64,000 nt of DNA from an uncultured Chloroflexia bacterium (lineage in GTDB: Bacteria > Chloroflexota > Dehalococcoidia > DSTF01 > JALHUB01). A model generated the notes under the pieces. The model searched no databases. It saw only the letters and a list, made by a program, of their open reading frames with translations, and was not told the DNA's origin. Position numbers and translations under genes: made by a program. Positions within the stretch are counted from its first letter, which is position 1; every line of letters starts with the position of its first letter. Below, piece by piece: positions 684 through 64,000 of the stretch. The stretch covers positions 96,001 to 160,000 of the forward strand of contig CAVSBT010000015.1 in NCBI GenBank assembly GCA_963726245.1, read 5' to 3'.

Positions 684-1523
684 CTACACCGCCCTCTCGA
701 TGACATCAGCGTAGAAGCCCCAGTACTCGCGGGGCAGCAGCCGCCCGATGGCCACCATTGTCTGCTCGCGCGCCAGGCGGTCGAGCTCCTCCTGCCCCCC
801 CGTGGCCGGCAGCTTCAGGCTGAAAGTGGGCCCAAACACGGCGGTGAGGGCGCCGTCGCGCTCCAGGAGACCGACGGGCAGGATCGGCAGGCCGCGGTCG
901 CTGATGATCTTCAGGAAGAGTCCCACGCCCGGTGTCGCCTCGACAAGCATGCCTTTGCCCCGGGCCTCCGGCATGAGGCCCAGGGGCTCGCCGGGGCGAC
1001 CGTCCCTGCCCTGGGCATAGGCGATGGCCTGGTGCAGGGCGGCGGCGCGCGCCATCACCTTCTCCGGCACACGGGGCATGACCACGAAACCGTACATGCG
1101 GGCGACGCGTCGGAAAGTCCAGCGCCAGAAGCCATCGGGCACGGGCAGGACGCCCAGTCGACGCCCGAACCACTCGCTGGTGATGATCCAGTGGATGTCC
1201 GGCGACTGCGGCCGCCGCTGCGCCACCACCTGGCTGACGTGCATGCCGGCGAAGTGGACATTCAGCCCCGGCCGCTCATAGTGGTTGGCGACCAGGACGA
1301 AGGGCCCCTGAGACGGGATGTTCTCCTCACCCTCCGCCTGCGGCCGCGGCCGGACGTCGCGCAGGGTCCAGCGGGAATCGCCGGCGAAGGAACGCCGCCG
1401 GCCGAGGAGCCAGTCAAGTGCCCAGAGGGCGAGGCCGATGCGCGGGAAGTGGTATACGTTGAGGGCGCCTCCGGCGGAGGCGGGGCCGTCGCTCACGGGT
1501 GGGCCGTCAGGAGCTTCCCTCAA
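684..1523 (-). CDS. Lysophospholipid/glycerol acyltransferase family protein (PlsC-like), start uncertain
   Basis: GEENIPSQGPFVLVANH, LMPEARG and LPILPVGL blocks match acyltransferase motifs. Confidence 0.7.
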   Translation of the reverse strand: MREAPDGPPVSDGPASAGGALNVYHFPRIGLALWALDWLLGRRRSFAGDSRWTLRDVRPRPQAEGEENIPSQGPFVLVANHYERPGLNVHFAGMHVSQVVAQRRPQSPDIHWIITSEWFGRRLGVLPVPDGFWRWTFRRVARMYGFVVMPRVPEKVMARAAALHQAIAYAQGRDGRPGEPLGLMPEARGKGMLVEATPGVGLFLKIISDRGLPILPVGLLERDGALTAVFGPTFSLKLPATGGQEELDRLAREQTMVAIGRLLPREYWGFYADVIERAV

Positions 1524-2082
1524 GGCGCAGGTAGAGGAAGAGGGCGGCTACGGACTTGGCGTCCTCCAACTCGCCGGTCTCGACCATGCGGAGGAGTTCC
1601 GCCAGCGGAAGCGCCAGCACCTGGATCTCCTCTTCGTCGCCGCCGCCGGCGGGGGCGGGCTCGAGGTCCGTGGCCAGGTAGGCATGAATGTACTCCGTGC
1701 TGTAGCCCGGCGAGACGAGAAACCGGCCTAGACGCCGGAGACGGCCGGGCCGGAAGCCGGTCTCCTCCTGCAGCTCGCGGGCGGCGCAGGCCTCCGGCTC
1801 CTCATCGCCGTCCAGAGTGCCGGCGGGCAGCTCCAGCAGAGGCCGGGCAATCGGATGGCGGTACTGGCGCACCAGCAGAATCTGACCCTCCGCGTCCACG
1901 GCGACGATGACGACGGCGCCGCTGTGCTCGACCACCTCTCGAACGGCCTCGCGGCCGCTGGGCATACGGACGCGGTCGACCCGCAACCTCACCACGGCGC
2001 CCTCATAGAGGCGGCGGCTGGACACGGTTTCCTCCGCGGTCAGGGGCGTGGGCTCAGGAGGCTGTTCGGAGGGAGCGTCCAT
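1507..2082 (-). CDS. NUDIX hydrolase (ADP-ribose pyrophosphatase-like)
   Basis: REVVEHSGAV, VRQYRHPI, ELPAG...ARELQEETG Nudix box and DAKS. Confidence 0.9.
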   Translation of the reverse strand: MDAPSEQPPEPTPLTAEETVSSRRLYEGAVVRLRVDRVRMPSGREAVREVVEHSGAVVIVAVDAEGQILLVRQYRHPIARPLLELPAGTLDGDEEPEACAARELQEETGFRPGRLRRLGRFLVSPGYSTEYIHAYLATDLEPAPAGGGDEEEIQVLALPLAELLRMVETGELEDAKSVAALFLYLRLEGSS

Positions 2083-2651
2083 CAGGAAACGGAATCGGCC
2101 GGATGGGCCCGGGCGGGCTGCTGTCCGCGGTCGGCCGCGTGGCCGCCTTCCAGATCGAGGACCATCGCTATCTCGTTGCAGCCGGGGAACTTGGGGCAGC
2201 GATAGCACTCGTTCCACACCTTACGAGGCAGGGTCATGACGTCCGCCTGGCGGAAGCCCAGCTTCTCGAAGAACGGGGGGCGGTAGGTCAGGGCGAAGAC
2301 GGTCTTCACACCGAGCGTCCGCGCCTCCTCCACGCACGCCTGCACCAGGACGACACCCAGGCCCTGAGCCTGACTCTCCTCGCGTACGGACAGGGATCTT
2401 ACCTCCGCCAGATCCTCCCACATGACATGCAGTGCCACGCAGGCCAGTATCTGCTGATCGTCGCGAATCACGAAGAAGTCACGCAGGTTCTCGTAGACCT
2501 CGGCCAGGCTGCGGGGCAGCATCTCGCCGCGCTGGGCGAAGTAGTTCACCAGGCTGAGGATCGAGGAGGCATCGCCGACGGTCGCCTTCTCGACCCGCAG
2601 GCGCGGCGCGACGGCGCCGCCTTTGCGTCGGGTCTCCGCCCGCGTGCTCAT
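2082..2651 (-). CDS. Short GNAT-type amino-acid N-acetyltransferase (ArgA-like)
   Basis: MLPRSLAEVYENLRDF, WEDLAEVRSL and LPRKVWNECYRCPKFPGCNEIAM. Confidence 0.85.
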   Translation of the reverse strand: MSTRAETRRKGGAVAPRLRVEKATVGDASSILSLVNYFAQRGEMLPRSLAEVYENLRDFFVIRDDQQILACVALHVMWEDLAEVRSLSVREESQAQGLGVVLVQACVEEARTLGVKTVFALTYRPPFFEKLGFRQADVMTLPRKVWNECYRCPKFPGCNEIAMVLDLEGGHAADRGQQPARAHPADSVS

Positions 2652-3574
2652 GGGCGCCCCCTGTCCTGGCGCGCCGGATCGGCCTGTCCGCCTGCCGGGC
2701 GGGCAGACGGCGACTCCTCGGGCTGCCGCACCCAGTTCAGGCGACGGGCCACGCGGGCGTAGAAGTCTGAGGGCGGGCTCAAGCGCAGAAAGCGGGCTAC
2801 GTGCGGGCTCAGCCGCACGTGCAGCGTCTGCGAGAGGGTGAGCTCGGGGCCGGGCTCTCCGTCGACGCTGACCATGGCCCGCTGGTCGGCTGCCATCGCC
2901 ACCTCCACCAGCGCCGTCGAAGGCAGGACCACAGAGTGCCGCTCTGCCAGGTGAGGCGCCACGGGAGTGACGACGATCTCCCTGCACTCCGGGTAGAGGA
3001 TGGGTCCGCCCAGGGCCAGGGAGTAGGCCGTGCTCCCCGTGGCTGTGGCCACGATGACGCCATCGGCGCGGTAGTCCGCGACCTTGATGCCGTCCGCCAG
3101 GACGGCGAGTTGGAGCAGGCGGGCGGCGCCGCCGCGGCTCACGACGACATCGTTGAGGGCGTTGTGACAGGACTCTTCCTCGCCCCAGACGACGCGGCCG
3201 CTGTCGACGGAGACGACGGCGGCCTGGAGCATGGTTCGCTCCTCGATCCGCCCCTGGCCACTCAGGACCTCGGTCAGACGGCCCATGACGGCGCCCTCGT
3301 CCATCTCGGTCAGGAAGCCGACACGCCCCATGTTCAACCCGAGGAGCAGAGTGCGGTGAGGACCCACGCAGCGGGCGGCGCGCAGCACGGTGCCATCGCC
3401 GCCTATGGACATCAGCAGGTCGGTGCCGGGGATCTGCGCCCTCATGAGCTCCTCGTCCCAAGCGGAGCTCACCCAGACGGCCTCGACCTCCCGTTCGAGC
3501 CGCAGACGCAGCTCGTCGGCCAGGGCGCGGCCCGCAGCCAGCTTCGGGTGGTAGCAGATGCCGATCTTCTTCAC
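2648..3574 (-). CDS. nadK: NAD kinase
   Basis: GGDGTVL, NMGRVGFL, ALND and DGVIVATATGSTAYSLALGGP motifs; GTG start at 3574. Confidence 0.95.
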   Translation of the reverse strand: MKKIGICYHPKLAAGRALADELRLRLEREVEAVWVSSAWDEELMRAQIPGTDLLMSIGGDGTVLRAARCVGPHRTLLLGLNMGRVGFLTEMDEGAVMGRLTEVLSGQGRIEERTMLQAAVVSVDSGRVVWGEEESCHNALNDVVVSRGGAARLLQLAVLADGIKVADYRADGVIVATATGSTAYSLALGGPILYPECREIVVTPVAPHLAERHSVVLPSTALVEVAMAADQRAMVSVDGEPGPELTLSQTLHVRLSPHVARFLRLSPPSDFYARVARRLNWVRQPEESPSARPAGGQADPARQDRGRP

Positions 3575-4335
3575 GACAGAACCTCGGCGGGGACGCCCAG
3601 CAGAAGGAAGAACTCCTTGTTGCCGGCCGGCCCCAGCAGTGGAGAGGTGGTCAGGCCGAGCAGGCGCAGACGGCGCCCAACGCACCAGGCGATGAGCCGG
3701 CCCAAGACGGCCGCATGCACCTGAGGGTCGCGCACCACGCCGCCCTTCCGCACCTCCTCTCGCCGCGCCTGGAACTGGGGCTTCACCAGCGCCACAATGC
3801 GCGCGCTGCCTCTCAGGACACTCACGATGGGCGGGACCACCTTCTCCAGCGAGATGAAGGACACGTCAACAGTCGCCAGGTCTACCTCTTGAGGCAGACC
3901 CGCCTGCCGGACGGGCAGGGCTTCCAGGTAGCGAACGTTCATCCCCTCCATCACCACTACCCGCGGGTCATTGCGCAGACGCCAGTCCAACTGGCCGCGC
4001 CCAACGTCGACCGCATAGACCCGCGCCGCGCCTCGCTGCAGGAGGCAGTCGGTGAAGCCGCCCGTCGACGCCCCCACGTCTATGACCGTTAGGCCGCCCA
4101 CGTCGAGCGCGAAGACATCCAGCGCGTGAGCCAGCTTCTCGCCGCCGCGGCTCACGTACTGAGGGCCGGCCAGCACCCGGATGTCGGCATCGAGCGCAAC
4201 GAGGGTTCCGGGCTTCAGGGCCGGTCTCTCGTCCACCACGACGGAGCCAGCCATGATGATGGCGCGCGCCTTCTCGCGGCTTTCGGCCAGGCCGCGCTGG
4301 AGAAGGAGGACATCCAGGCGGCTCCTGTCCGCCAT
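3571..4335 (-). CDS. tlyA: TlyA family rRNA 2'-O-methyltransferase
   Basis: S4-like N-terminus RLDVLL, YVSRGGEKL, DVGASTGGFTD, DVSFISL, LVKPQF and GNKEF. Confidence 0.95.
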   Translation of the reverse strand: MADRSRLDVLLLQRGLAESREKARAIIMAGSVVVDERPALKPGTLVALDADIRVLAGPQYVSRGGEKLAHALDVFALDVGGLTVIDVGASTGGFTDCLLQRGAARVYAVDVGRGQLDWRLRNDPRVVVMEGMNVRYLEALPVRQAGLPQEVDLATVDVSFISLEKVVPPIVSVLRGSARIVALVKPQFQARREEVRKGGVVRDPQVHAAVLGRLIAWCVGRRLRLLGLTTSPLLGPAGNKEFFLLLGVPAEVLS

Positions 4336-4385
4336 AGCTTCAGTATAGGAACGGCCCCTGCAAATGGCAAGGAAGCCGGGCTCGG

Positions 4386-4414
4386 TTGACGGGCCCAGGG
4401 GCGGCCCTTATCAT
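4386..4414 (+). promoter_or_regulatory. Sigma70-type promoter for the UbiA-family gene
   Basis: TTGACG-17 nt-TATCAT, ending 10 nt before ATG 4425. Confidence 0.5.
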
Positions 4415-4424
4415 CGGGGCAACG

Positions 4425-5438
4425 ATGGCGAACCAACGGCAGCGCTTCTCCGGCGCTCCCGCCCGCGTGGGCGCGTCCCCCGAGGCGGCGCCTCTCCGCT
4501 TGCCGGCCAGTCCAGGCGGGCCTTTGCTGGGAGCCGCCGGTTACCTGCGGTCCCTTGTCATCTCCATGCGACCCCGCCAGTGGACGAAGAACCTCATCGT
4601 CTACATGGCGCTCATCTTCTCCGTCGGCAGCGCCTGGCACGTCCGCCAGCCGGATACGTGGCTTCCGCTGCTGGGCAAGGCGAGTCTCGCCTTTGCCCTC
4701 TTCTGCCTCGTGTCGAGCGCCGACTACCTGGTGAACGACGTCCGCGACCGCGAGCAGGACCGCCTGCATCCCACCAAGAGTCGCCGGCCCGTGGCCGCGG
4801 GCGCCTTTCCGGCACGAGCGGCGCTGGCCTGCGCTCTTGTCCTTTCGCTGGTAGGACTGGGCGGCATGTTCGCCCTCGACCTGCGGGCCGGTGGGGTCGT
4901 GGCGGGCTACATCGCGCTTATGCTGGCCTACTCGTTCCACCTGAAGCACACGGTACTGCTCGACATCATGACTATTGCCGCGGGCTTCGTGCTGCGCGCC
5001 ATGGCCGGCGGCCTTGTCATCGAGGTGCCTATTTCGCCCTGGCTCTACGTGGTCACGGCCCTCGGCGCTCTCTTCCTGGCGATCAACAAGCGTCGCGCCG
5101 AGCTGGTTCTCTTGGAGGACCAGGCCAACCAGCACCGCGCCACTCTGGAGGAGTACACGCCCGACCTGCTGAACCAGCTCGCCGCCACGGTCACGGCCTC
5201 CACCCTCATCGCCTACGGCCTCTACACCTTCACCGCCGACAACCTGCCGAAGAATCACTCGATGATGCTGACCATCCCCTTTGTCCTCTACGGCATCTTC
5301 CGCTATCTCTTCTTGGTCCACGCCAAGAACCAGGGTGGCAGCCCGGAGGAGGTGCTGCTCAAAGACTGGCCCTTGCTCCTCGACATCCTGCTCTGGGTGG
5401 TGACTTCGCTGGTGATCCTCACCGTCTTCCGCGAGTAG
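4425..5438 (+). CDS. UbiA family prenyltransferase (decaprenyl-phosphate phosphoribosyltransferase-like)
   Basis: MRPRQWTKN, YLVNDVRDREQDRLHPTKSRRP, KRRAEL and GSPEEVLLKD; multi-TM. Confidence 0.9.
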   Translation: MANQRQRFSGAPARVGASPEAAPLRLPASPGGPLLGAAGYLRSLVISMRPRQWTKNLIVYMALIFSVGSAWHVRQPDTWLPLLGKASLAFALFCLVSSADYLVNDVRDREQDRLHPTKSRRPVAAGAFPARAALACALVLSLVGLGGMFALDLRAGGVVAGYIALMLAYSFHLKHTVLLDIMTIAAGFVLRAMAGGLVIEVPISPWLYVVTALGALFLAINKRRAELVLLEDQANQHRATLEEYTPDLLNQLAATVTASTLIAYGLYTFTADNLPKNHSMMLTIPFVLYGIFRYLFLVHAKNQGGSPEEVLLKDWPLLLDILLWVVTSLVILTVFRE

Positions 5439-6013
5439 CCAAGCAAAGTAGGGACGGAGGAAAAGAACGAGACGACGCTCAAGGGCACCAACGAGGCTGA
5501 CGAGACATGCGATGGCGGCAAGCCACGCGGCCACCGCGAGCGCCGCTGCGCCACGAAGAACAAGAGAGAGCGGATAACCGCAGCGAGGGCGAACAAGACA
5601 CCAGTGTGCGGCAAAAGGGAGCGCGGCGGCCGCGAGAGAGAGCGCGACAAGCCGAAGGTATCGCAGCGAGAGATCGAGTGCACGATGTTCCACAACAACG
5701 ACCGGCGAGCCTCCCGCCTCAACGCAGACGAGCGCGCGACTCAATGCACATAGGGAAGATGCTCCCGCACGACGTCAACCGCCACAACAGCGAATACGTG
5801 CGTGGCGAAATCCACACACAGGGCATCGAGCCTGGGCGACAGAAGCGCGGTCTGATCGGGACGACCACCGCGAGACGCGGGCTACCCGCGCAGACGCGCG
5901 GAGACGAGGCCGCCACAACACGCGGCACATAACCGATGTGGAGCGGGCTTCAGCTCCGTCCTTACGGCTTCGCTATTAGTGCCGGTCTGTCTCAATCTGT
6001 GGCAGGCAAGGGG

Positions 6014-6033
6014 AAGGCCCCTTTCGGGGCCTT
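6014..6033. terminator. Stem-loop downstream of clpX
   Basis: AAGGCCCC-TTTC-GGGGCCTT perfect hairpin ~30 nt past the clpX stop. Confidence 0.6.
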
Positions 6034-6063
6034 GCTTATCGAAGCGGGTTGGCGGGCGCGTCG

Positions 6064-7365
6064 TTAGGCCGATTCGTCTCTGATCTCGTCATCGCCGCCG
6101 GTCTCCACCACCTGGCCGGAGCGCGTCAGCATAATGGGCCGCGCCCGCCCCAGGATGGTGTCGGCGCTGACCACGCACTTCTTGACGTCTCCCCGCGAGG
6201 GGATCTCGTACATCACGTCCAGAAGCGTGTCCTCGAGCACGGTGCGCAGGCCGCGGGCCCCCGTCCTGTGGCGGATGGCTTCCTCGGCGCAGGACTCCAG
6301 CGCCTCCGGTGTCATGACCAGCTCCACGTTGTCGAGGGCGAAGAAGCGCTGGAACTGCTTGATCAGCGCGTTCTTGGGCTCGGTGAGGATGCGGACCAGG
6401 TCGCCCTTCTGTAGCGACTCCAGGCTCACCACCAGCGGCAGCCGCCCGACGAACTCAGGGATGAGGCCATACTGGAGGAGGTCATCATGGGTGACGTACT
6501 TCAGCAGCTCGTCGGAGAGCTCCTGGCCCGTCTTGTTGGCGAAGTCGGCGCGGAACCCCATGGACTTCCGGCTCTTGCTCAGGCGCCGGTCGACCACCTT
6601 GTCCAGCCCCTCGAAGGCGCCGCCGCAAATGAAGAGGATGTTGCAGGTGTTGATCTGAATGAAGTCCTGGTGGGGATGCTTGCGGCCCCCCTGAGGCGGC
6701 ACGTTAGCCACCGTGCCCTCGATGATCTTGAGGAGAGCCTGCTGGACGCCCTCGCCGGATACGTCTCGGGTGATGGAAGGGTTGTCGCTCTTGCGGGAGA
6801 TCTTGTCGATCTCGTCGATGTAGACGATGCCACGCTCTGAGCGCGAGATGTCGAAATCGGCAGCCTGAATGAGGTGAAGGAGGATATTCTCCACGTCCTC
6901 GCCGACATAGCCGGCCTCGGTAAGGGCCGTGGCATCGGCGATCGTGAAGGGAACGTCCAGGATGCGGGCCAGGGTACGGGCCAGTAGGGTCTTGCCGCAG
7001 CCGGTGGGCCCCAGGAGGAGGATGTTGCTCTTCTCCAGCTCGACTTCCCCACACCCGCTGCCGGCAGAGATGCGCTTGTAATGGTTGTAAACGGCGACGG
7101 AGAGGACTTTCTTCGCCTGCTCCTGGCCGATGACGTACTCGCCTAGCTGCTGGTAGATGGTTTTGGGGGGAGGTGTGCGCTCCGCGCCGGCCTTCGGCTT
7201 GCCGACGCCCGCCGCCTCCTCGTCGATGATCTCGCGGCAGAGCTCGACGCACTCATCACATATGTAGACGGCGCCGGGACCGGCAATGAGCCGCTTTACC
7301 TGGTCCTGGTTCTTGCCGCAAAAGGAGCAGTGGTAGAGGACGCGGCTACTGCGGCTGTTGGCCAT
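6064..7365 (-). CDS. clpX: ATP-dependent Clp protease ATP-binding subunit ClpX
   Basis: CSFCGK...ICDEC zinc finger, [29 protein letters not shown] and TGARGLR. Confidence 0.98.
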
Positions 7366-59481: not shown

Positions 59482-60468
59482 GTGAGGGAAGCGAATTTGG
59501 GCCGCGTCACGCCGTTCCCCGACGTCGCTATAGAGGCGAGGTCGCGGGGGCTCTGGAGTGACGCCCTGCGCAGGCTGGCGGGGAACCGCCTGGCTATGGC
59601 CGGCGTGGTAATCGTGCTGCTCACGGCCGCAGTGGCCACCTTCGCCCCTCTCATCGAACGCTATCCGCCCAGCCAGCAGGATGCCACCGCCTCTTTCGAG
59701 GGGCCGAGCGCCCGCCACTGGCTCGGCACCGACCAGTTGGGCCGCGACCAGTACAGCCGTCTGGTCAACGGCGCCCGCGTGTCGCTGGCCGTGGGCATTC
59801 TCACCCAGATTGTGGCGGTGAGCCTGGGACTGGCGGTTGGGCTGGCCGCAGGGTTGGGCTTCCGGACCCTGGACAACCTCCTGATGCGCTTCACCGACGT
59901 CATCTACGCCTTCCCGGACCTGCTCTTCGTCATCCTGCTGGTGAGCGTCTTCCGGGAGGGCGTGGCCGGCAGCGCCACACGCACGCTGATCGTGACCTTC
60001 GTGGCTATCGGCCTGGTGAACTGGCCCGACATAGCACGTCTGGTGCGGGGCCAGATCCTCTCGCTGCGACACCAGGAGTTCGTGGGGGCCGCCGAGGCGC
60101 TGGGCGCCAGCCGCCTGCGCGTCGCTCTGGTGCACCTGCTGCCCAACACGCTGGGGCCGGTGATCGTGATGGCCAGCTTCGGGATACCGGCCGCCATCTT
60201 CGCCGAGGCCGCCCTGTCTTTCATCGGCCTCGGCCTGCCGCCGCCGACGCCCAGTTGGGGGCGTCTGGTGGCCGACGGCTACGACGCCATAGCCACCCAT
60301 CCCAACCTGGTGCTTGCGCCGGGGCTGGCCATCGCCGCCCTGATGATGGCCTTCACCTTCCTGGGCGACGGCCTGCGCGACGCGCTGGACCCCCGTCTGG
60401 CGACCCGCGAGCGTCGGGTGCGCGCGCTGCCCGTCCGGGTGCCGCGCCGATTGCGGAAAGCAGCCTAA
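59482..60468 (+). CDS. Oligopeptide ABC permease OppC-like
   Basis: HWLGTDQLGRD, EFVGAAEALGAS, HLLPN, PSWG and GDGLRDALDP. Confidence 0.92.
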   Translation: MREANLGRVTPFPDVAIEARSRGLWSDALRRLAGNRLAMAGVVIVLLTAAVATFAPLIERYPPSQQDATASFEGPSARHWLGTDQLGRDQYSRLVNGARVSLAVGILTQIVAVSLGLAVGLAAGLGFRTLDNLLMRFTDVIYAFPDLLFVILLVSVFREGVAGSATRTLIVTFVAIGLVNWPDIARLVRGQILSLRHQEFVGAAEALGASRLRVALVHLLPNTLGPVIVMASFGIPAAIFAEAALSFIGLGLPPPTPSWGRLVADGYDAIATHPNLVLAPGLAIAALMMAFTFLGDGLRDALDPRLATRERRVRALPVRVPRRLRKAA

Positions 60469-60508
60469 CAGGCTCCCGCCGGCTAACTCTCCCCCGGCGG
60501 GAGAAATG

Positions 60509-60540
60509 GAGGGCCCGGGTTTGGCGGAACCCGGGCCCTC
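60509..60540. terminator. GC-rich hairpin; probable original guaB3 or bidirectional terminator
   Basis: GAGGGCCCGGGTT-TGGCGG-AACCCGGGCCCTC, 13-bp perfect stem. Confidence 0.7.
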
Positions 60541-60561
60541 GTGTTCTGCTGACGGATGCGG

Positions 60562-60602
60562 TCAGGCGTCGTTGCGCTGGTAGACCTTGCCCTCGTCTTG
60601 AT
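60562..60602 (-). pseudogene. Displaced 3' fragment of guaB3 (att junction)
   Basis: Minus strand reads ATCAAGAC GAG GGC AAG GTC TAC CAG CGC AAC GAC GCC TGA (EGKVYQRNDA*) versus the present guaB3 end [12 protein letters not shown]. Confidence 0.7.
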
Positions 60603-60912
60603 TCGAGGGGATACAGAATTGGCATACGTGCGTTCGGCTAGCGGCCCTGACTCTCCACGAAGACTCCTTCGCAAAGCGCGCTGCCGCCTGACATCTCGTA
60701 GACCCCCGCATCACGAAGTAGACCAGTCGTTCTCTCGCGCTGGTCCGCTATGATAGCCACCTCCGAAGACACGATTGCCAATATGCGTTGCGGTCTTCGC
60801 GCGGCCCTTGGGCCGGCCTCTAACAGTGCAGGTTCTTGACCCGCTAAGAAAGGGATGGAATACTCCACGTTTAGGCGACCAATGGAGAACCAGGTCTTGA
60901 GGAGGTGCGAAA

Positions 60913-62060
60913 ATGGGCATTCGCTACTGGCCTTTCGCAGTGGAGGAGAAGCATGCGCCCCTAGATCCCAGTGAAGCTGGGGACGAGCGCAAGCGCGACT
61001 GGGTGATTCCGCTGATCATACTGCTGTCGACCGCGCTCGTCTTAGCTGTTGTGATTCTCTTGATGGTCTACCCGCCGTGGGAAAACGAGCCCCTGCCCCA
61101 GCTACAGACAAGGCTGCGGGGCATGGACGGGCCCAGCTTGGGAGTGGAGCAGCTGCGCCAGGAGATCGTCAAGCTTGAACTGGAGAATAGGACGAACGGT
61201 AGTCTCTGGGGTGCCTTCCTCTACTACGTTCCCTTTCTGAAAGCAGTTGTTGCTGGTGCAGGTGCATTTGCGGCGATTTGGAGGCAGATCGCAGAGGGAG
61301 CTAGACAACGTGATTTGGATAGGACACAGAGAGAGGCTGACGGCCAGCGTCGCTTTAACGACAAAGAACAACACGACCATCGTACAGAACCTGGGCTCAG
61401 ACAGTGCGGCGCTGCAGGCTAGCGCTGCAGTCTCTCTCGCCACCTTTATTAGAGCCACGTTACGCAGCTTTCAGTAATCAGGTGTTTCTGGTAACGTCGC
61501 TAGCTAATCTGAAGATTAGGCGTGATGAAGTTGTGAGCAGCTTTCTCGTTCATACCTTCGAACTGGCGATACGCAAGCGGCTCGCGTAGGCAGGACAGAA
61601 GGACGGCAGTCTGTTGAATATATCTAAGAACAGCGCTCAACAGGGTGGATCTCTCAGGCCTAGACCTCAGTGAGGCAGACATTGCCTATGCCAGCATGCG
61701 GAACGCGAATCTGACGAACACCAACCTAAAGACGAGTCAGTGGTATCGAGGTAAATATCTGGAGGGATCTCGCCTGTCAGGCGCGGATTTGTCAGAGGGT
61801 CGCCTGAGAAAGGCGCACTGCCGGGATGCGCAGTTCCACGAGGCAAACTTAGTCTCTGCGCGGTTAGAGGAGGCGGAACTCCAGAGGGCGCAGTTCCAGA
61901 GGGCACAACTGCAGTCCGCGCATCTGAACGGTGCCCTGCTCCCAGGCTCGAATTCGAGGATGCTAATCTGAACGATGCATACTTCAACGGTGCCGCCTTC
62001 GATGCACCGGCTCTTGCCAGCATCGCAAGAGCATTGAATTGGCGGAAGGCACACTTCTGA
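60913..62060 (+). pseudogene. Membrane-anchored pentapeptide-repeat protein with multiple frameshifts and an in-frame stop (decayed or poorly polished)
   Basis: GGAGG RBS, two N-terminal hydrophobic segments, then DLSGLDLSEADIAYASMRNANL...ADLSEGRLRKA...ANLVSARLEEAELQRAQF...ANLNDAYF across frames. Confidence 0.7.
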
Positions 62061-62737
62061 ATCCGGAGGTGAGAGTGCGGAGCTCAATAGAATCTCAGGA
62101 GTACTGCACTAGGCCGCAGAAGGAAGCGTGGGGCGCAACACTCGCGCGGAAGCAAGCGCGAACGAAGCGTTACACACGCAAGGCGAAGCGTAGCACGCGT
62201 ATCCACAAAGGTCAAAAGGATCAGTAGTAGTACTTGGCATACAAGCACTGCATGGGAATTCACAGTGGCTTTGAGCTCTGCAATTGGCGATGCGACTGGG
62301 GGATCAACAACAGGCTATGAACTCGGCTCGGACGTGAGGTGGCTTTGCGCGCAGGGCTAGGTCACATTCGGCAGGGGTGTGACATATGACTCGGTAGAAC
62401 GGACGCATTTGGGTCTTGTTGCTCGGGTCTTCATAGACACACCAGCCGGGAAAGAAACGATCTCGGGCAGCCAAGACTTCGCTGCTTTCATGTGTGAAGC
62501 TTGAGTCCATGTGCAGTGACCACTAAAGTCTGGAAATTGTTCATTGATGTCTTGAGATCATATGAAACGTTTGATTGTGCCATCTATTGCCCATTTCCCT
62601 AACAAGCGAATCTCAAGACAACTAACGCTTGCCCTTCTTGTAGTCATCCGCTTCTCGTTCAGAGAGTTGCCTCACCGAATTCCCGTCTAATGAATAGGAT
62701 GCCGCGGATATAGATAGTCAAGGCGAACGGAGAAACA

Positions 62738-62770
62738 GAGAGCCCGGGCTTGTTGACGACCCGGGCCTCT
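62738..62770 (-). terminator. Hairpin resembling the 60509-60540 terminator, inside the element
   Basis: AGAGCCCGGG...CCCGGGCCTCT preceded by GGAGAAA, giving a U-rich tail on the minus strand. Confidence 0.55.
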
Positions 62771-62792
62771 GACATCTGAGCCTAGTATCAAG

Positions 62793-62894
62793 TTGTTGTG
62801 CGTGGTGCAGCGTGTCTGGGTAGAGGACGACGGCCGGCTCACGATTGAGGGGACTCTCAGCGGGAGAGTTGATACTGTTTCCCCTCGGTCTTGA
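62793..62894 (+). pseudogene. Putative C-terminal stub of a large serine recombinase
   Basis: [33 protein letters not shown], with the TGA inside the GTCTTGAT core; resemblance judged by eye. Confidence 0.45.
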
Positions 62895-63969
62895 TGGACG
62901 GGGCGACGACGAGCTCTACCTTCTGGAAGTCGCGGATGGTGCGGGCGCCGCAGACCCCCATGGCGGTGCGCAATGCCCCCACCAGGTTCTCGGTGCCGTC
63001 GGTGCGGGAGGTCGGGCCGAAGAGCGCTCGCTGGAGCGTGGTGGTGACGCCCACCGTGACCCGCGTCCCTCGCGGCAGCTCCGCATGCGGCGTGGCCATG
63101 CCCCAGTGGTGGCCGTGACCAGGCGCCTCCACCGTGCCGGCCAGTATGGAGCCCAGCATCACGGCGTCGGCGCCGGAGGCGAAGGCCTTGCACATGTCGC
63201 CCGTCGTCACGATACCGCCGTCGGTGATGATCGGCACGTAGCGGCCGCGCTCCTGGTAGTACTGGTCGCGGGCGGCGGCGCAGTCGATAGTGGCAGTGAC
63301 CTGAGGCACGCCGATGCCGAGCACCTCGCGCGTCGTGCAGGCGGCGCCCGGCCCCACGCCGACCAGGACGGCGGCCACGCCCGCCTCCATGAGCTCCTTG
63401 CAGACCCCGTAGCTGACCGTGTTGCCTACCACCACCGGCACCGGCATCACCCGCACAAGGTTCTCGAAGTTGAGCCCGGTGGGGCTTCGGGAGACGTGGC
63501 GCGGCGAGGTCACTGTCGACTGGACGACGAAAACGTCGACCCCCGCTTCAACGGCCAGCGGCGCGAACCGCTTGGTGTTGGCGGGGGTGCAGGACACGGC
63601 GCACAGGCCCCCCCGGGCCTTGATATCCCTTACCCGCGCCCCGATCAGCTCTTGCCGTATGGGCTCGGAGTAGACCTTCTGGAGGAGGGCGGTGACCTGG
63701 CTCTTGGGCGCCGCCGCGATCTCCTCTAGAATGGCCGCGGGGTCGTCGTAGCGCGTCTGGACGCCCTCCAGGTTGAGGACCGCCAGCCCTCCCAGCTTCT
63801 GGAAGTCGACGGCGAAGCGGGTGTCCACCACACCGTCCATAGCCGCGGCCAGGAAGGGGAGCGGGAGCTGCAGGTCGCCAATGGAGAACGAGACGTCGGT
63901 CAGTTCAGGGTTGAGAGTCGTGGCGCCGGGGACGATGGCCACCTCGTCGAAGCCGTAGGCGCGGCGCAT
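62857..63969 (-). CDS. GuaB3-family IMP dehydrogenase-related protein (true start may lie further upstream)
   Basis: [49 protein letters not shown] and WGMATP..ELPRGTR; no CBS domains. Confidence 0.92.
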
Positions 63970-64000
63970 GACCTTGGCGCCGGGGGGCGCCTCGACCGGT

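Follow-up and report, generated by a model that had tools for sequence, protein, structure and literature searches.

Probable remnant of a large serine recombinase island at the 3′ end of guaB3 in an uncultured member of the Dehalococcoidia

Islands driven by tyrosine integrases that enter the 3′ ends of tRNA, transfer-messenger RNA (tmRNA) or guaA genes carry a replacement 3′ end for the gene they enter. In staphylococci, the Ccr proteins of SCCmec, which are large serine recombinases (LSRs) that work as a CcrA/CcrB pair or as CcrC, insert their islands into the last codons of rlmH (orfX) without inactivating it, and composite and decayed islands accumulate there. Most of the characterised phage LSRs disrupt the target gene and do not supply a selected replacement tail. 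Within the class Dehalococcoidia our literature search returned one island system only, that of Dehalococcoides, in which, according to McMurdie et al. (2011, PMC3146451), islands with the serine recombinase DsiB stand in tandem at the end of a single gene, ssrA. Here we describe a locus at the 3′ end of guaB3 in another member of this class, within a window of 64,000 nt (positions 96001-160000 of contig C15 of the metagenome-assembled genome (MAG) G000, which comprises 2.68 Mb in 46 contigs; coordinates below count from window position 1). In this window a segment of low guanine-plus-cytosine content (GC), 60603-62887, sits between two copies of the 8-mer GTCTTGAT. The segment is very probably what remains of an LSR element that integrated into the last codons of guaB3 and has since decayed. 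The evidence consists of the two junctions, a stub of the integrase gene (int), a full-length integrase in the same MAG, relatives with empty and with occupied sites, and constraint on the new tail of guaB3.

The target gene, guaB3 (62857-63999, minus strand, running off the window end), encodes a GuaB3-family protein related to IMP dehydrogenase (IMPDH), scoring 428.5 bits against TIGR01304 (cut-off 342.1) and 2.2e-53 against PF00478; against the IMPDH model TIGR01302 it reaches 156 bits, where the cut-off is 481.5. Convergent with it in the host flank lies a gene for an OppC-like permease of an oligopeptide/nickel-type ABC transporter (59482-60468, plus strand; NCBIfam Opp4C 3.7e-87, below the family cut-off), which is syntenic in G001, a sister species of the same genus, and in G007, of a sister genus. 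Between oppC and the original end of guaB3 stands the native terminator hairpin T1 (60494-60555, inverted repeat I1), 96% identical to that of G001 and 93% to that of G007. Next to it is the displaced native tail of guaB3, EGKVYQRNDA* (60562-60594, minus strand), the B arm of the old attB and now non-coding, which is related to the intact tail EGKIHQRNESGG of G007 and to EGKVYQHNNG, itself displaced, in G001. The first core copy (60595-60602) follows as an attR-like left junction, and the second (62888-62895) forms the attL-like right junction, where guaB3 now continues into the tail EGKQYQLSR* (62857-62886, minus strand). GC falls to 0.47-0.60 over about 60550-62950, against 0.67-0.72 in the flanks. 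An earlier note, written from the letters of the window, had drawn attention to the repeated 8-mer, the low-GC segment and both tails, all of which are indeed present, and had read them as site-specific integration at the 3′ end of guaB3.

The core by itself is weak evidence. Three matches to GTCTTGAT occur in the window against 0.82 expected, and at least three were found in 4 of 100 shuffles; the third match (21532, minus strand) is a coding coincidence. The direct repeat measures 8 bp, or 13 matches of 14 once the arm is included. The ends of the element are inverted with respect to each other, 60604-60619 pairing with 62872-62887 over 16 nt at 88% complementarity (I10), and the inverted repeat described in the earlier note is accordingly present. 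At the left junction a T stands between CCCTC and GTCTTGAT in both G001 and G007 and is missing in G000, between 60594 and 60595; the empty-site contig described below also has this base. G001 is instead short of one base within the core. Thus the missing base that the earlier note had proposed at this junction is supported by three comparisons, whereas the extra base that it had proposed alongside is not, because the T that follows the core is found at this place in G001 too.

The right end of the segment identifies the family of recombinase. Positions 62802-62894 (plus strand) hold the last 30 codons and the TGA stop of an LSR gene, with the stop (62892-62894) inside the core. When the segment was compared with the entire MAG, the first 52 bases of contig C11 proved 100% identical to 62801-62852, and no further copy of the segment exists in the G000 genome. 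On C11 (7.3 kb, GC 0.637) a 500-residue open frame runs off this contig end, and the window supplies the 13 codons that lead to the TGA. The product has the PF00239 Resolvase domain at residues 21-165 (1.3e-32, with the motif YARVSSEDQ) and, C-terminal to it, the PF07508 Recombinase domain at 190-284 (9.7e-19) and PF13408 Zn_ribbon_recom at 297-357 (4.1e-09). In LSRs a coiled coil in the zinc ribbon governs directionality; a candidate for it here is a weak TRIM_CC match at residues 371-442 (0.0048, below cut-off). It matches the phrog_95 integrase at 2.9e-104, and its relatives of solved structure are the catalytic domain of the TP901-1 integrase (3bvp, 5.6e-15) and a 500-aa integrase (9iu2, 1.7e-14). 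We take the nucleophile to be the serine of the YARVSSEDQ-type catalytic domain. A scan of viral contigs with this integrase found no relative, and a scan of genome contigs found G001 as the sole match. C11 and C15 share nothing to the left of 62801; the bin therefore holds two versions of the locus. The earlier note had called the element integrase-less, which is nearly right in that no complete int is present, and missed that the right border is itself the 3′ end of an LSR gene. Its proposals of a serine-type integrase and of a deleted copy both fit, int being reduced here to the last 30 codons.

The substitute end of guaB3, nine codons long, is read from the strand opposite the C-terminal codons of int. 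The view that the element supplies a replacement gene tail thereby holds in a refined form: the tail, which is also the P arm of attP, is written on the reverse of int. Six occupied loci can be compared, namely the G000 window, G001 and the metagenome contigs L046, L048, L049 and L050. Across them the heptapeptide EGKQYQL has 5 variable codons, every one of which is synonymous in the guaB3 frame, while the same base changes alter 9 of 13 residues in the int frame. The final two codons of the tail vary, and in L049 the stop is absent and the tail extends by seven codons. The direction is clear in this small sample of related loci, and it suggests that selection now acts on the guaB3 frame and not on the dead integrase.

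Relatives provide both states of the site. We compared guaB3 tails in 31 loci, comprising G000 and the 30 best-matching of 40 related genomes searched. G001 ends in EGKQYQLSR*, as does G000; G007, which has no island, ends in EGKIHQRNESGG* and thus resembles the displaced tail; the remaining tails fit EGK-x-[YI]-Q. In G007 the order is oppC, terminator, a small open reading frame (ORF), a hairpin and guaB3, with the core sequence uninterrupted, as expected of an empty site. In G001, by contrast, the site is occupied: on its contig C56 an int remnant of aa 384-513, 87% identical in nucleotides to C11, abuts guaB3, and its contig C122 carries oppC, the terminator and the displaced tail followed by about 75 nt homologous to 60603-60678. 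C122 and C56 share 55 nt, which stand at the end of the former and at the start of the latter. The integrase is also encoded in six metagenome loci, four of which (L046, L048, L049 and L050) include its 3′ end, and in all four this end abuts guaB3 through the same arm and core. In these int begins at aa 237 (L046), at or after aa 357 where the contig ends (L048), at aa 367 (L049) and at aa 414 (L050). Altogether there are five distinct internal truncations (aa 237, 367 and 414, 384 in G001 and 484 in the window), each of which keeps the 3′ stub. Examination of the guaB3 3′ flanks of relatives for adjacent LSRs, a check proposed in the earlier note, thus found them in G001 and in metagenome contigs, and the same junctions recur throughout.

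A 776-nt contig from a soil sequencing run provides a second empty site, in which 60585 is joined to 62878; it skips 2292 nt, not 2293. Relative to the window flanks it has 20 differences over 285 nt (93.0% identity) and 19 over 423 nt (95.5%), and G001 is 85.6% and 90.5% identical over the same two intervals. The organism with the empty site is therefore closer to G000 than G001 is. Tallies for the order cover 93 genomes (G000 and 92 others, including the unpublished G060). An LSR, at a threshold of E<=1e-20, is present in 25 and guaB3 in 87; they lie side by side in no genome other than G000, by way of the C11 link, and G001. In G060 the LSR lies on C42 and guaB3 on C76, where they are not adjacent. 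The nearest full-length homologues of the integrase in the order, in G037 (45% identity) and G021 (41%), do not adjoin guaB3. Separately, two genomes from another genus of the family (G002, C24; G014, C7) have an LSR 10.6 and 11.7 kb downstream of guaB3 and convergent with it; these are unrelated (31-32% identity), and guaB3 has its genus-typical tail there. In the MAGs G006, G050, G067 and G070 the search met guaB3 as a pair of partial hits, each on a contig of its own, which may reflect either assembly breakage at the locus or a true interruption.

Set beside the described systems, the locus works like the ssrA islands and like SCC at rlmH and belongs to neither. With the ssrA islands, as McMurdie et al. 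present them, it shares the bacterial class, an LSR of about 500 aa at the island edge adjoining the target gene, a target at the 3′ end of a single-copy conserved gene that stays functional, a far border marked by a direct repeat of that gene end, possibly tandem islands, some of them with no integration module, and low-GC cargo. It differs from that account in its target, which is guaB3 and not the tmRNA gene, in its repeat of 8 bp and not 20 bp, and in a substitute gene end that is antisense to the integrase itself; moreover, no DsiA-type recombinase was among the tested ORFs of the incomplete contig C11, where none of the 10 ORFs other than int had the resolvase domain of a small second serine recombinase. 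SCCmec is similar in using the last codons of a conserved gene, in leaving the target active and in forming decayed and composite islands. Its hosts and cargo are nevertheless unrelated, and the Ccr models score far below their cut-offs for this integrase (CcrB 81.4 against 900, CcrA 58.8 against 700; XisF likewise reaches 112.7 against 375).

Phage integrases such as those of Bxb1, phiC31, TP901-1 and A118 share with the C11 protein the domain order of catalytic domain, recombinase domain and zinc ribbon. Their att sites are short, with imperfect dyad symmetry about a central dinucleotide and little identity outside it, and the short end arms here may be of the same kind. However, those integrases in our collection are at most 25-31% identical to the C11 protein, and neither C11 nor L046 showed any phage structural gene. 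As in the islands of tyrosine integrases, an element-borne copy keeps the target intact and the displaced end lies at the far border; the recombinase family and the att architecture are different, no tyrosine integrase accompanies the junction, and the only one seen belongs to a nested insertion in L046. Among the matches listed in our literature search there was no serine integrase that targets an IMPDH-family gene, guaB3 included. Neither guaB nor a dehydrogenase is named in the main text of the LSR catalogue by Durrant et al., whose supplementary target lists may include IMPDH-family genes. The general picture of serine-integrase islands is unchanged by this locus, which is a clear but ordinary kind of island; what stands out is that the new tail is antisense to int, that the stop codon of int falls within the core, that truncations recur, and that accretion may have occurred.

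The earlier note had taken the segment for one discrete element of about 2.3 kb, and this did not hold up. The segment is a composite of an island end, foreign DNA with pseudogenes, a second native 3′ stub and the int stub. The island end, with the P′ arm and adjacent sequence (60603-60678), is 90% identical over 71 nt to C122 of G001 and forms the inverted repeat with 62872-62887. The foreign interior (60679-62726, GC 0.47-0.59) holds ORF169 (60913-61422, plus strand) and a frameshifted pentapeptide-repeat gene (61645 to about 62060, plus strand; PF00805 2.4e-26), and no integrase. Between 60690 and 62800 it matched 0 of the 92 other genomes of the order, and the segment is not the conserved core DNA that could have argued against insertion. 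The two other observations that the earlier note had named as refuting its reading, a guaB3 ending unrelated to the displaced tail in relatives without the island and an assembly chimera, are not borne out either. ORF169 (169 aa) found no protein relative among proteins of near length other than the query itself, a tblastx search with the interior had no match in the fetched loci and 3 weak ones in its own genome, no Rfam family was present, and a scan for promoters and terminators stayed at background level.

Beyond the interior lies T2 (62727-62769), a second and diverged copy of the terminator hairpin, with a local score of 33 against T1; none of 1000 shuffles and none of 3000 random genome pieces scored as high. 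The 2.68-Mb genome has only four hairpins of this kind, T1 and T2 among them. From T2 the homology extends across a spacer into a stub of a native guaB3 tail (62781-62805, minus strand), aligned to G001 by Smith-Waterman, which comprises the stop and about 5 codons with a 2-nt gap and is fused to int. This stub is closer to the native tail of G001 than to that of G000. Alone it scores 32 against the native region of G001, a value reached by 0 of 2000 shuffles and 0 of 3000 random 61-mers, and T2 and the stub jointly score 64 against a null maximum of 29 (7-kb genome pieces). A blastn-short search with both against all loci found no match, and their homology rests on the Smith-Waterman tests. 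No extra copy of tail or terminator rose above the null in the G001 island, L045, L046, L049, L050 or C11. The homology of T2 and the stub stops where that of int starts, at 62801-62805, at a few shared bases, and the join looks like the product of a deletion that ran from a displaced tail into int. The native copy persists at 60494-60594; the locus therefore once held two displaced gene ends.

Two histories might produce this arrangement. A tandem integration of two islands followed by deletion is plausible, if somewhat short of probable. An older island (60603 to about 62806) would have given guaB3 its tail and terminator, a second element of the C11 type would then have entered the same core, and a later deletion would have taken everything between the intermediate tail and int codon 484. 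It is also possible that an allele already bearing the deletion scar was imported from a relative by homologous recombination.

In the mechanism that we propose for the integration, attB would span roughly the ...IKTEGK codons of guaB3, with GTCTTGAT as the shared core. In the intact element int would extend to the attachment site and stop within the core, and the strand opposite its final 10 codons would read as a GuaB3-like tail. By the chemistry of LSRs, which need no host factors to recombine attP with attB, the integrase would bind and synapse attP on the circular element and attB in guaB3, make staggered cuts at a central dinucleotide, rotate its subunits and religate. Integration would sever the native tail and terminator (now at 60494-60594), and guaB3 would gain a working substitute tail. 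Most of the element would later be lost, so that there remain some 75 nt from its far end and the final 30 codons of int, together with 2 kb of foreign DNA and the second terminator and tail stub. Excision by a serine integrase would need a directionality factor. The present copy is presumably immobile, because it has no integrase and a 1-nt deletion beside the attR core.

The integration of an LSR element has to be weighed against three other accounts of the segment. It is improbable that we are looking at a live, non-autonomous mini-element with both att sites kept, moved in trans by the C11 integrase. In its favour are the two junctions, the inverted repeat of the end arms and, in the same bin, a full-length integrase whose 3′ end is identical; for the Dehalococcoides ssrA system (PMC3146451), islands that lack an integrase and are possibly mobilised by a neighbour have been discussed. 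Yet the segment has no second copy in the genome, its interior matched none of the 92 other genomes of the order, the attR core has lost an adjacent nucleotide relative to G001, G007 and the empty-site contig, the cargo consists of frameshifted pseudogenes, and no circle junction was seen in the contigs. An artefact of assembly or binning, in which C15 would join two strains or organisms at 62801 or 60603, is very unlikely. At 62801 the stub of the old tail passes into int through a short microhomology, beside a copy of the terminator, which is not a join that an assembler could invent, and both types of junction recur in the independent assemblies of G001 and the four metagenome contigs. It is true that the MAG is 83% complete with 6.3% contamination, and that ten of its contig ends repeat 30-623 nt present inside other contigs; one of these, the end of C11, offers an alternative path into 62801. 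Such a path nevertheless means heterogeneity rather than a chimera, and the repeated ends are read as strain variants or unresolved branches in the bin.

We give equally little credence to an origin without any site-specific recombinase, in which DNA of a relative with its guaB3 3′ region would have arrived by homologous or illegitimate recombination and the repeat would be microhomology. This account draws on the xenologous guaB3 terminator and tail end within the segment, and homologous exchange among relatives has probably contributed. However, an LSR gene ends at the right border, with its stop within the repeat, and the same border recurs in six loci; the left border opens with the same core of 8 bp and with an arm that pairs with the right one; and a Campbell-type integration would duplicate the body of guaB3, of which there is none at the left junction.

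Several observations weigh against integration by an LSR, or limit how far it can be taken. The dyad symmetry of the reconstructed attP exceeds chance only modestly: the joined ends match at 15 of 26 positions, which was equalled by 26 of 2000 arm shuffles and by 119 of 2000 random pairs of 40-mers from the window. Here the inverted repeat of the earlier note stands, and its significance as a dyad is modest. A symmetry scan did not confirm the TT that the earlier note had placed at the centre of the dyad: the attP dyad centres on the second T of the core and the best centre for attB falls elsewhere, and the crossover with its dinucleotide is localised no finer than the 8-bp core. No attP (circle-junction) sequence and no intact far end of a C11-type element were found in the contigs, and it is from contigs that the two paths into 62801, through the C15 interior or through C11, were deduced. 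The six occupied loci are mutually related and are not six independent events. The sequencing-run match comes from one run (soil), with 0.05 of sampled words and kept as contigs, and from a relative rather than this strain; parts of the window without cover are uninformative in this comparison. The target is narrow and guaB3 is not a general hotspot, with adjacency of LSR and guaB3 confined, among the 93 genomes of the order, to the two members of this genus. Finally, the second terminator and tail stub are not accounted for by one simple event.

These points leave the decayed LSR integration as our preferred reading, and they bear on a bolder proposal that we consider doubtful. In it the 3′ end of guaB3 would be a still-active accretion site for elements that keep attP in the 3′ codons of their own int, so that the antisense of those codons would come under selection in the host protein; once the element is dead, the int stub would become the permanent end of guaB3, and the second stub would record two successive integrations. 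This would mean that a first island leaves behind a junction still able to act as attB, which is not expected for LSRs of the phage type, and the C11 integrase with its predicted sites would make a new working set of LSR, attP and attB. The integration itself would already provide, on sequence grounds, a concrete candidate pair of attB and attP with an integrase for an uncultured, high-GC lineage of Dehalococcoidia. At this locus one stretch of DNA has three roles, as recombination site, integrase C-terminus and tail of a host protein, and with decay of the element selection switches to the host reading frame. Independent truncations of int that all keep the 3′ stub indicate that island scars become fixed parts of a host gene.

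Further observations concern the contents of related islands. Beside the integrase on C11 (L033, 1955-3568 and 4895-5962) are a pyridoxal-phosphate-dependent decarboxylase (PF00282, 4.1e-100), which is diaminobutyrate-decarboxylase-like although below cut-off, and an O-methyltransferase (PF00891); these may be metabolic cargo of an intact island. On the 27-kb contig L046, positions 1135-6834 carry an N-terminal piece of int (about aa 1-55) that is separated from int aa 237-513 by genes for a tyrosine integrase, RadC and DUF1638; a Phage_rep_O-like ORF lies upstream, and the whole looks like a set of nested mobile elements. Should the 55 nt shared by C122 and C56 reflect true adjacency, the G001 island would measure about 8.5 kb (L036 2405-2452 and L034 1-6950). 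It encodes an FGGY kinase, a RuBisCO-like protein, a saccharopine dehydrogenase, a class II aldolase and an RNase H-like protein. It also contains a 48-nt fragment 96% identical to G000 C17:5628-5675 and similar to a tRNA 3′ half, where ARAGORN calls no tRNA. On C56 of G001 (L034 6951-6959) the core occurs a third time, extended by one base as GTCTTGATT, 22 nt upstream of the truncated int; by our own estimate, chance would give about 0.07 matches of this kind in 9 kb.

The 14 nt of the junction sequence, CCCTCGGTCTTGAT, recur in two Ser/Thr protein kinase paralogues of G000 (C13:24040 and C13:29127; L055), where they encode IKTEG; this is probably coincidence and could be a pseudo-site. In G007 (L035 3670-4047) an extra ORF for a 125-aa membrane protein and a second hairpin lie between guaB3 and the oppC terminator, and the spacer downstream of guaB3 therefore varies even without islands.

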